64,000 nt of DNA, taken from assembly GCF_003018255.1 (NCBI RefSeq), contig NZ_CP027441.1. One strand, given 5' to 3'. The stretch is from Escherichia coli. GTDB lineage: Bacteria > Pseudomonadota > Gammaproteobacteria > Enterobacterales > Enterobacteriaceae. Below are positions 6,101 to 9,100 of this stretch, piece by piece. The position numbers were made by a program. The number at the start of each line of letters is the position of its first letter. Within the stretch, counting starts at the first letter, position 1.

Positions 6101-9100
6101 ATATACCTACTCCAGCTTATGTTATGTCTGTTCTGCTGACCACAGCTTATATAAGGAAGTGCGTATGCCGTCACCTCAGGGGAGACAGTGTATGCAGGAT
6201 CTCCGCAGCATCCCGCCCGTCACCTGTGAAAGGCGCTGCCAGCGTGGCAGCCATATCCAGTGCAAACACTCTGGTATAAACCTCCATCGAACGTAGATCC
6301 CTGTGACTAAGCAGTGCCAGGATGACTTTCCGGGGCTGGCGGTGATAGAGCATGTGCATGATATAGCTGTGCCGGAAGGTGTGTGGTGTGACCGGTATCG
6401 AAAAGTGTCCCCCCTGCTTCGGCCCGTCTGACAGCCAACTTCAGCCAGTTGCGCATGGTTTCGTCGGTCACAGCTCATAATGGTTCACGACGACGGGGCC
6501 GGGTGGTGCTCATCCAGCTTTCCATCTGCCTGACATAGCCTATATCTGTCAGCGGAACCCAGCGCACTTCATCTTTGTGGCGGGCGTCCGCGTCGCGCAC
6601 GCACTTTTTCGGACAGGATCCGCACAAACGGTCTTACTCCATCCAGGCTTCGCCAATACGCATTCCGGTATTCCAGAGGGGGGCGAACAGCATATGGTGA
6701 CGCTGATCCGGCATATAGAAAAGAAGGGCACTCACTTCCGAGGCCAGCAAGTAGGCCGGTGTGGCCCCCCGTGGAAGTGGCCATTCTTCTCAGGGAGAGC
6801 GCTGTTGCAAAATCCCCCCCCCCGGCGCAATGGGTAACAGGGAGACGCGTTCTGGTGAATTCTGCAGGGGAATGACATTGTTCATGAGTTATTTTTCACG
6901 TAGCACACGCACTGTTGGATGGGGCTTCCCTGATCATGGTGGGAAGGCTCAGAACGCCATATTCAGTTTCCCGTAGTGGAACATCACGCCCAGCTTAAAG
7001 TGCTCCCGATTGCGGTATCCCCTGGCTTTTATCCTCAGTAGCCTGATCTTACTGTTAAGCGCCTCCGCATTTCCGTTTGAGACACGGTGCCGCATGGCAT
7101 TCAGGATCCCGTAAAGCCTTTTTCCTATCGTTTTTGCGGCGTTTTTCATCATAGGAACGTCACAGTTGGCCGCTAGAGCCAACCATCTCTCCCAGTCATT
7201 ACGTCTTTCCTCACTCCATGGCCTGTTCCAGATATCCTTTGCCAGCTCTTTCATGTCAGCGCCCAGCACTGGCTTGTCAGCTTCATCTGCGCACGCAGCC
7301 ATATCAGCTTTTCCTGCCTAGATTCGGTCATCCATTTATCGCTGTACTGCCACAGGAAGCGGGTCCCCTTTGCCTGACGCCGACTTTCAACAGGGAGGTG
7401 CGAATGTTCATTCTGACGGTTTTTATCAACCACTTCGCCAAGTTGCTTTGCTACATGGAAGCGGTCGAAGGCGATTTTCTCAACCGCACAGGGTAAGTGG
7501 ATACGCGCTGCTCTTATATAGCCTGCATTCATGTCCATTGAGAGCGTTTTGATAGCCAGCAACTGCCCGTCAGTAAGCGTGCGAAGATAGCCGGCGAGGC
7601 TCTCTGTGCCACGATCGTCCGTTAAGGGCAGCGCACGACCATCGCGATCGGAGCTCATCGTTATATAACGATGTCCTTTTTTAAAGGCGACCTCATCCAC
7701 ATTCATATGACGGGCGGATAATGGCTTTTTTATCCGGACAAAACCTCGCTTAACTGCCCGGGTCATAATGCCGTCAACCGCATTCCAACTGAGCTTAAGT
7801 TGTTTCCTGACAGCATCAACAGTACTGATTTTCAGCCATGAGAGAACGAACGATTCGAACAGCAGCGTATACCGGCTTCCGGGGCCAGCCCTGGGAACTG
7901 GCAACGTCTGGCGGCCATGCTCCGGCACATAATGCGGGGCACATCGGCTTCGACAATAGTGGTGAACTGGCAGGTATCAAGATGACGCCATTTACGATGA
8001 CGGTGACATCGTGAACAGAACAGGATTTACCACAGGTCGGACAGGCTAACCGGGCATTTTCAGCGATCCCAACTGTGACGGTAACAGAACCGGCGTTTTC
8101 ATCGAGAGAAAGAGATTTAACCTGCCTTGGAGCGGTCAGGTTGAGAATATGAACGTAGAGGGACTTTTCGTCCATGGCGGTGACCTCTGGCAATTAAAAC
8201 ATCATCATGCCTTCAGCCACCACAACAAGGGAAGACCCTTATGGATACAGCTATTCTGACCTGAACGTCCGGATCCTTCCACGACAATAAATCGCAGCGC
8301 GCGGATCCTTTTGTTTGATTATCACGCATTATTGCGTGTAAAGCCAAATACGTAAAGGCGTATTTGGCCGCAGGGATCCCGTCTTAAGCCAGTCGTGGCG
8401 CAGGCTGATGGCTGGTTTGCCGTTTTTGGGAGAATAGGGAGAATTGGGAGAATTGGGAGAATTGGGAGAATTGGGAGAATTGGGAGAATTGGGGTAATAC
8501 CAGGACGCTAATGATCTATCAATGGATGGATGTAAGTGACAATTGAAAACTGAAAAATGCGCTATGTAGATTCTGACAGATTTATGCACCTGAAATACGT
8601 TCAAAATCCACATAGCGTAACTCTGATTTCCCTTACCAGAAAAAAGAGGGGGAATAACCAGTATCTATCCCCCTAAACAATAGCAGAATAATAAATTATA
8701 AAAATAAGAACTCAGGATTTATATACATGATTACATGTAATATTACTGATAAATATTTTGAGATAAAACCTTTTTGCTGATTATTTTAAATATCTTGATT
8801 TCATCATCTGTAAGGTTGCTCCATATTTTTTTTAGATAGCGTCCATATATCCTTGTAATCTTCTGTAAAAACAAATCACCATCTGGAGTCAGGTAAATAT
8901 TCTTACTACGTCGATCTTCCTTACTTTCCATACGCCTAATAAAACCAAATTTTTCCAGAGAGTCACAAACTCTGGTGATATTTGTTCTGGAAACATCTAA
9001 TTTATCACTGAGTTCAGTTGGAGATAAGCAAAAATTATCAGCACTGGATAAGAGGGCCAGAACCATAAGTGTTGTATCATTTATGCCATCCACCTTCAGG

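Follow-up and report, generated by a model that had tools for sequence, protein, structure and literature searches.

Results

A pO113-type plasmid carries a broken recombinase gene beside RepFIB repA

The window, a 64,000-nucleotide stretch of Escherichia coli DNA (contig NZ_CP027441.1), is part of a pO113-type plasmid of LEE-negative STEC (E. coli that produce Shiga toxin) and carries RepFIB repA, ehxCABD, espP, saa, iha, sab and subAB. Over 50 kb it matches plasmid NZ_CP027451.1, here called the sister plasmid, at 99.96% identity, and over the region of interest it is 99.5% identical to pO113 (NC_007365). In this region the replication initiator gene repA converges with the remains of a tyrosine recombinase gene, int. 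The latter abuts three repeats that presumably are the downstream RepFIB iterons. The features to which we refer are the following.

4909-5886, plus strand: intact RepFIB replication initiator gene repA, convergent with int
5924-5936, 6091-6103 and 6139-6151: iteron-like TATAAGCTGT(A/G)GT repeats, in the interval from the repA stop (5886) to that of int (6171)
6171-6885, minus strand: RepFIB-linked tyrosine recombinase (int) pseudogene, 715 nt as against 741 nt in intact copies
6814-6823, minus strand: G10 tract (C10 on the plus strand) in place of the ancestral GGGGGTGG (G5TG2), net +2 nt
6765-6770, minus strand: second G-run, G6 as against G5 in intact genes (+1)
6634-6648, minus strand: junction of a 28-bp deletion (6647-6648), directly past the conserved TGMRIGEA box, and a TAA codon (6634-6636)
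6577, minus strand: +1 insertion of C, CCAAAAG to CCACAAAG, by alignment to intact genes
6475-6477, minus strand: nonsense codon TGA; intact genes have TGG (Trp in ...REPLWAVTDE...)
6409-6415, minus strand: AGGGGGG for TGACGG(A/G)GT, a -2 indel from which a third G-run arose (in one relative, G5)
6171-6359, minus strand: C-terminal ORF fragment with the presumed nucleophile Tyr codon (6276-6278)
6949-8193, minus strand: decayed ISL3-family transposase gene (ISKox3-like, 92%), directly upstream of int, 'frameshifted' in relatives
49029-49238, minus strand: downstream of subB, what is left (about 55-69 aa) of the C-terminus of a ResD/Rsd-type tyrosine recombinase, 71-72% identical to ResD/RsdB

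Decay is not confined to int. The ISL3 transposase gene is split into three ORFs by indels of +2 (8007-8008), -1 (7926) and +5 (7254-7258), none of which lies in a homopolymer. Given that this gene was inactivated through indels in non-repetitive sequence, the decay of the int neighbourhood is genuine. Intact relatives carry ISKox3 in the same place, in either orientation (L003 versus L004). For pO113 itself, 38 pseudogenes have been reported (PMC2681110).

int is a copy of a common plasmid recombinase gene

The stretch from 6885 to 6171 is about 95% identical at the DNA level to annotated intact genes of 741 nt, encoding 246 aa, in NZ_CP068043 and NZ_CP103516. Thousands of IncF plasmids have the intact gene in convergent orientation to RepFIB repA, and the int stretch is present in 2,925 records from 2,898 of the 5,426 complete E. 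coli genomes. A Pfam search with the ORF fragments of the window gave no meaningful match, each fragment being too short on its own, and the identity of the gene is therefore taken from the intact orthologue. The 246-aa protein matches Phage_integrase (PF00589) with 55.5 bits (E=8e-15; cutoff 27.1 bits); it also matches Xer-like NCBIfam models, below their cutoffs. The pseudogene is thus one of a known and very common plasmid gene, and it has already been flagged by RefSeq in relatives: in all relatives that were checked in a fully annotated collection, PGAP gives it as 'tyrosine-type recombinase/integrase; frameshifted; internal stop'.

Intact Int aligns over nearly its full length with pSLT RsdB (50% identity over 244 aa, E=1e-64) and, at 47% over 258 aa (E=4e-70), with the ResD-like integrase encoded after ccdAB in the sister plasmid. 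Because identity stays at 47-50%, Int is a paralogue, and not an orthologue, of the ResD/Rsd resolvases. Int adjoins RepFIB repA and not ccdAB/oriV-1, the position that a ResD/Rsd resolvase with its rfsF/crs site would be expected to have; in the sister plasmid a separate, intact ResD-like gene lies next to ccdAB. By homology, intact Int would be a multimer resolvase. Our literature search found no experimental work on the function or resolution activity of the RepFIB-linked int, and for its product we know of neither a target site nor an experiment that proves resolution.

Six lesions disable the gene

Compared with the intact copies, int of the window has six disabling lesions, several missense changes and a net length change of -26 nt (741 to 715). 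An integrase pseudogene had been recognised here by the initial annotation, and the alignment confirms it. The start codon is an ATG at 6885 on the minus strand, upstream of the boundary first given (6171-6875), so that the G10 tract occupies codons 21-24, just past the first 20 codons in which it had been placed. The tract itself is exactly as described, ten C at 6814-6823 on the plus strand and hence G10 on the coding strand. From the base composition one expects about 0.03 runs of at least ten C and 0.01 of at least ten G in 64 kb, as against the two runs present; the C10 is therefore not a chance run. The second of the two, a G10 at 55776-55785 on the plus strand and the sole other G/C run of ten in the window, lies in frame (...QYSTGGGRTTLLGISKRG...) within an IS110-family transposase-like ORF (55327-56019) and may likewise be prone to slippage, here in the gene of a mobile element.

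The frame breaks right after the tract, as had been noticed: the ORF that opens at the true start (6790-6885, minus strand) leaves the frame past G10, ends in ILQQRSP* and measures 31 aa. The homopolymers reported further downstream are also there, namely G6 at 6765-6770, C6 at 6678-6683 and a G6 within 6409-6415, and two of these three are frameshift sites in their own right. The 28-bp deletion puts the TAA at 6634-6636 in frame, and the ORF 6634-6750 (minus strand) ends there. The C-terminal ORF, 6171-6359, is cut off from the N-terminal parts. It contains a Tyr codon that we take to be that of the nucleophile, from the RsdB/ResD alignment and from box II of tyrosine recombinases in general. 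What survives of int is thus a set of short ORF pieces in different frames. Codons of the conserved motifs persist (TGMRIGEA; ...MEVYTRV...), but in separate ORFs whose frames differ and between which stops intervene, and nowhere in the window copy do the catalytic residues (box I Arg, HxxR, His and the nucleophile Tyr) share one continuous frame. The window int is a pseudogene of the tyrosine recombinase family and not a working member of it.

No tract length restores the reading frame

We rebuilt the gene while varying the first tract between 5 and 16, and also for all length combinations of the three G-runs. Over all simulated lengths the longest ORF from the start codon was 107 aa of 246, whereas in the intact protein the catalytic HxxR, H and Y are found at about residues 177-212. 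Slipped-strand ON/OFF switching is excluded, given that most catalytic residues lie beyond the longest attainable ORF. Of the features that mark contingency genes, int has a homopolymer in its 5' coding region (G10, codons 21-24) and a tract whose length is polymorphic among plasmids at least 98% identical, a polymorphism to which assembly error may contribute; an ON state in an otherwise intact gene does not exist, since no length yields more than 107 aa and five other lesions persist.

Tract length varies among relatives, and no relative is in frame

The first tract was measured in 18 related plasmids, with the following result.

G7, seven plasmids: CP146514, CP028121, CP043938, CP027581, CP061760, CP129260 and CP027375
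G9, nine plasmids: CP027451, pO113 NC_007365, CP027372, AP027259, AP027257, AP042513, AP042586, CP146511 and CP045214
G10, one plasmid in addition to the window: CP027370
G13, one plasmid: AP027207

The lengths that would keep the frame, 8, 11 or 14, occur neither in the 18 relatives nor in the window. Across the relatives the second run is G4, G5 or G6 and the third G5 or G6. The TGA codon and the -2 indel are found in 18 of 18 relatives, and the 28-bp deletion and the additional C in 17. The exception, pRM14516 (CP043938), has the fewest lesions and G7, which suggests that the tract lengthened after the gene had died. Accordingly, the interrupting T seems to have been lost early and the run to have grown only in a dead gene; this order is drawn from few plasmids, and recombination could blur it. 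Of the two observations by which the initial annotation would have had switching refuted, a tract invariant across reads and additional frameshifts that show the gene to be irreversibly dead, the frameshifts are present and refute it, while the tract varies (7, 9, 10 or 13 in relatives).

In the 851-bp region that contains int, the seven closest sequences show zero substitutions and two differences in G-run length, one of them the extra G of the window. Differing as it does in length between near-identical plasmids, the G-run is a place within a dead gene that is prone to slippage or to error.

The tenth G: recent slip or assembly error

Comparison of the window with NZ_CP027451 over 50 kb shows 16 substitutions and four one-base indels. 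Each of these indels falls in a homopolymer, three in poly-T runs and one in the int G-run, a pattern that fits slippage and long-read assembly error alike. The length G9 is robust: it was obtained for pO113 of strain EH41 in two independent sequencing efforts (NC_007365 and the later pO113-EH41), the first of them from cosmid clones (PMC2681110). A very recent slip or an assembly error accounts for the tenth G of the window.

The other three indels relative to NZ_CP027451, at about 22613 (T7/T6), 22738 (T8/T7) and 42231 (T8/T9), are one-base changes in poly-T/A runs. The first two lie in an AT-rich region upstream of a PapB-like regulator ORF (22256-22564, minus strand) and of the sab autotransporter operon. 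These differences could represent assembly noise or variation in promoter spacing. A short tandem repeat at about 8395-8511, which translates as PNSPNS..., has another sequence or copy number than in the closest relative; BLAST interrupts its alignment here at 8457-8462, and a substitution lies at 8472.

Pure-G runs arise in other int lineages

Against both pure-G queries, about 2,900 of the 2,925 E. coli records show 98.5% identity, or one difference in 65-66 nt, as expected of GGGGGTGG. Exact matches among the 2,925 number five for pure G8 and seven for pure G7, the two lengths that the allele counts in complete E. coli genomes cover. A metagenome scan for pure-G tracts matched nine stretches on eight contigs, all from other int lineages; none of the nine belongs to the pO113 lineage. 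One contig (L024) has G8 and an intact 246-aa ORF (V23G), and another (L027) has G8 with a 29-bp deletion. Three (L025, L030 and L032) combine G9 with a 4-bp deletion. Three more (L026, L028 and L029) have G7 and a frame-restoring insertion of T 15 nt upstream of the tract. L028 thereby has a full-length ORF (tract at about 812-845), and in this allele as in those of L026 and L029 five residues are changed, from LLPIAPGV to LFTHCAGG; these alleles are possibly compensated frameshifts. The presence of G7, G8 and G9 alleles in other lineages indicates that the run slips repeatedly, and independently, once the interrupting T is lost.

A second recombinase remnant and an intact ResD-like gene

The initial annotation pointed to a YT(K/R)xFALDMAA motif common to int and to the recombinase fragment beside subB, and proposed two remnants of one recombinase family. 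The motif is indeed present in the last int ORF (6171-6359) and, as YTKAFALDMAA, in 49029-49238. The proposal stands at the level of the ResD/Rsd-like family and fails at the level of a single gene, the two being distinct paralogues. BLASTP aligns intact Int with the fragment over its C-terminus at 25/54 identities (46%, E=2e-11), as against 72% between the fragment and pSLT RsdB and 71% between the fragment and the intact ResD-like integrase of the sister plasmid. That the two fragments are pieces of one gene, or duplicates, is ruled out by these values. In tblastn the subB-side fragment matches, at about 70-74%, 'site-specific integrase' genes that thousands of enterobacterial plasmids carry, and RefSeq lists it as an incomplete pseudogene in a relative.

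Directly after ccdB the sister plasmid has an intact gene for a ResD-like integrase of 268 aa (76782-77588 of NZ_CP027451.1; L033, 583-1389), followed by partition genes for ParA and ParM. The window starts inside ccdB, which places the position of the ResD-like gene just beyond window position 1. ResD is a multimer resolvase that acts at rfsF and is encoded next to ccdAB (PMC4398462). The ResD-like gene beside ccdAB probably still supplies multimer resolution.

Discussion

Taken together, our analysis makes us highly confident that int of this plasmid is a non-functional, irreversibly decayed RepFIB-linked recombinase gene, in which the C10/G10 run is a neutral, slippage-prone scar and not a switch. 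Of the three options that the initial annotation had left side by side, slipped-strand switching, plain decay and sequencing error, it is plain decay that the six disabling lesions support. The course of events may have been as follows. Codons 22-24 would ancestrally have held GGGGGTGG, from which the interrupting T was lost in the pO113 lineage, leaving a pure G7 and a -1 frameshift. The nonsense codon, the -2 indel, the 28-bp deletion and the +1 insertion would have been acquired as well. In a dead gene free of selection, the uninterrupted run would have drifted by replication slippage from G7 to G9 and on to G10 or G13, and for this reason we regard the present tract as a scar. The loss was probably tolerated because the plasmid has kept an intact ResD-like recombinase beside ccdAB.

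A question remains, could a tract of this kind nevertheless turn a working recombinase ON and OFF? A long homopolymer early in the coding region is what phase variation would use, near-identical plasmids do differ in its length, and other lineages include both a pure-G8 allele with an intact 246-aa ORF (L024) and a G7 allele in which a compensating T yields a full-length ORF (L028). In the lineage of the window, however, five more disabling lesions are fixed, the ORF stops at 107 aa at most whatever the tract length, an in-frame length occurs in 0 of 19 sequences and the gene is annotated as a pseudogene. The downstream lesions rule out phase variation at this copy, which would be dead at any tract length, and we consider the switching of a recombinase here extremely unlikely; that part of the initial annotation has to be given up. 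We give even less credit to a rescue by recoding, in which transcriptional slippage or programmed ribosomal frameshifting on the G-run would restore the frame and a functional protein. Long homopolymers can support transcriptional slippage in some bacteria, but here a stop follows eight codons past the tract, and four further indel sites would need correction in addition to readthrough of the TGA. The 28-bp deletion and the nonsense codon rule out such a rescue. It is, finally, improbable, although less so than switching in the window copy itself, that the pO113 pseudogene is the fossil of a real mutational switch, a pure-G8 slippage hotspot in RepFIB plasmids by which a ResD-like recombinase would be inactivated time and again and now and then restored. 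Were that so, the G7 allele of L028 with its compensating T would be a trace of selection to regain function.

Sequencing error bears on a single base. It is possible, though we lean against it, that the tenth C/G is such an error and that the true length is G9, as in the closest relatives. Six 851-bp sequences that are otherwise identical to that of the window all have G9, leaving the extra G a singleton, and four of four indels relative to NZ_CP027451 are one-base homopolymer changes, the typical signature of long-read assembly error. Yet real slippage predicts the same signature, two further plasmids that were assembled independently have G10 and G13, and only one base is at stake in a gene that is dead either way. 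As a cause of the pseudogene, sequencing error fails, since the other lesions are not homopolymer errors and are common to independently sequenced plasmids.

In practical terms, the C10 tract should not be taken as a signal of phase variation. Because assemblies of near-identical plasmids disagree at the tract, as they do at the poly-T runs, it is best masked or treated with caution when plasmids are typed by SNPs and indels. For annotation the outcome is tidier and matters little: in pO113-type STEC plasmids the int linked to RepFIB is a pseudogene with several disruptions, and the fragment beside subB is the remnant of a different recombinase, of the ResD/Rsd type. The change from GGGGGTGG to pure G illustrates that one substitution or deletion can create a slippage-prone run, after which gene loss would be faster.

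How does this locus compare with known systems? With the homopolymer contingency loci of Neisseria, Haemophilus and Campylobacter it shares a poly-G/C tract near the 5' end whose length varies between relatives; unlike them it is without an ON state, with no in-frame length in 19 sequences. The resemblance to ResD of the F plasmid, which acts at rfsF, and to Rsd/RsdB of the Salmonella virulence plasmid pSLT is one of protein sequence, at 47-50% identity for intact Int, which differs from them in being linked to RepFIB repA and not to ccdAB and in its length of 246 aa as against 260-268 aa. Closest is the RepFIB-linked int of IncF plasmids (WP_001066954.1 and WP_001066953.1; 246 aa). Relative to this gene the window copy has G10 for GGGGGTGG and six lesions, and can no longer encode the protein, whereas the locus itself is orthologous, at about 95% DNA identity, and has kept the same placement, convergent with RepFIB repA and with an ISL3/ISKox3 element upstream.
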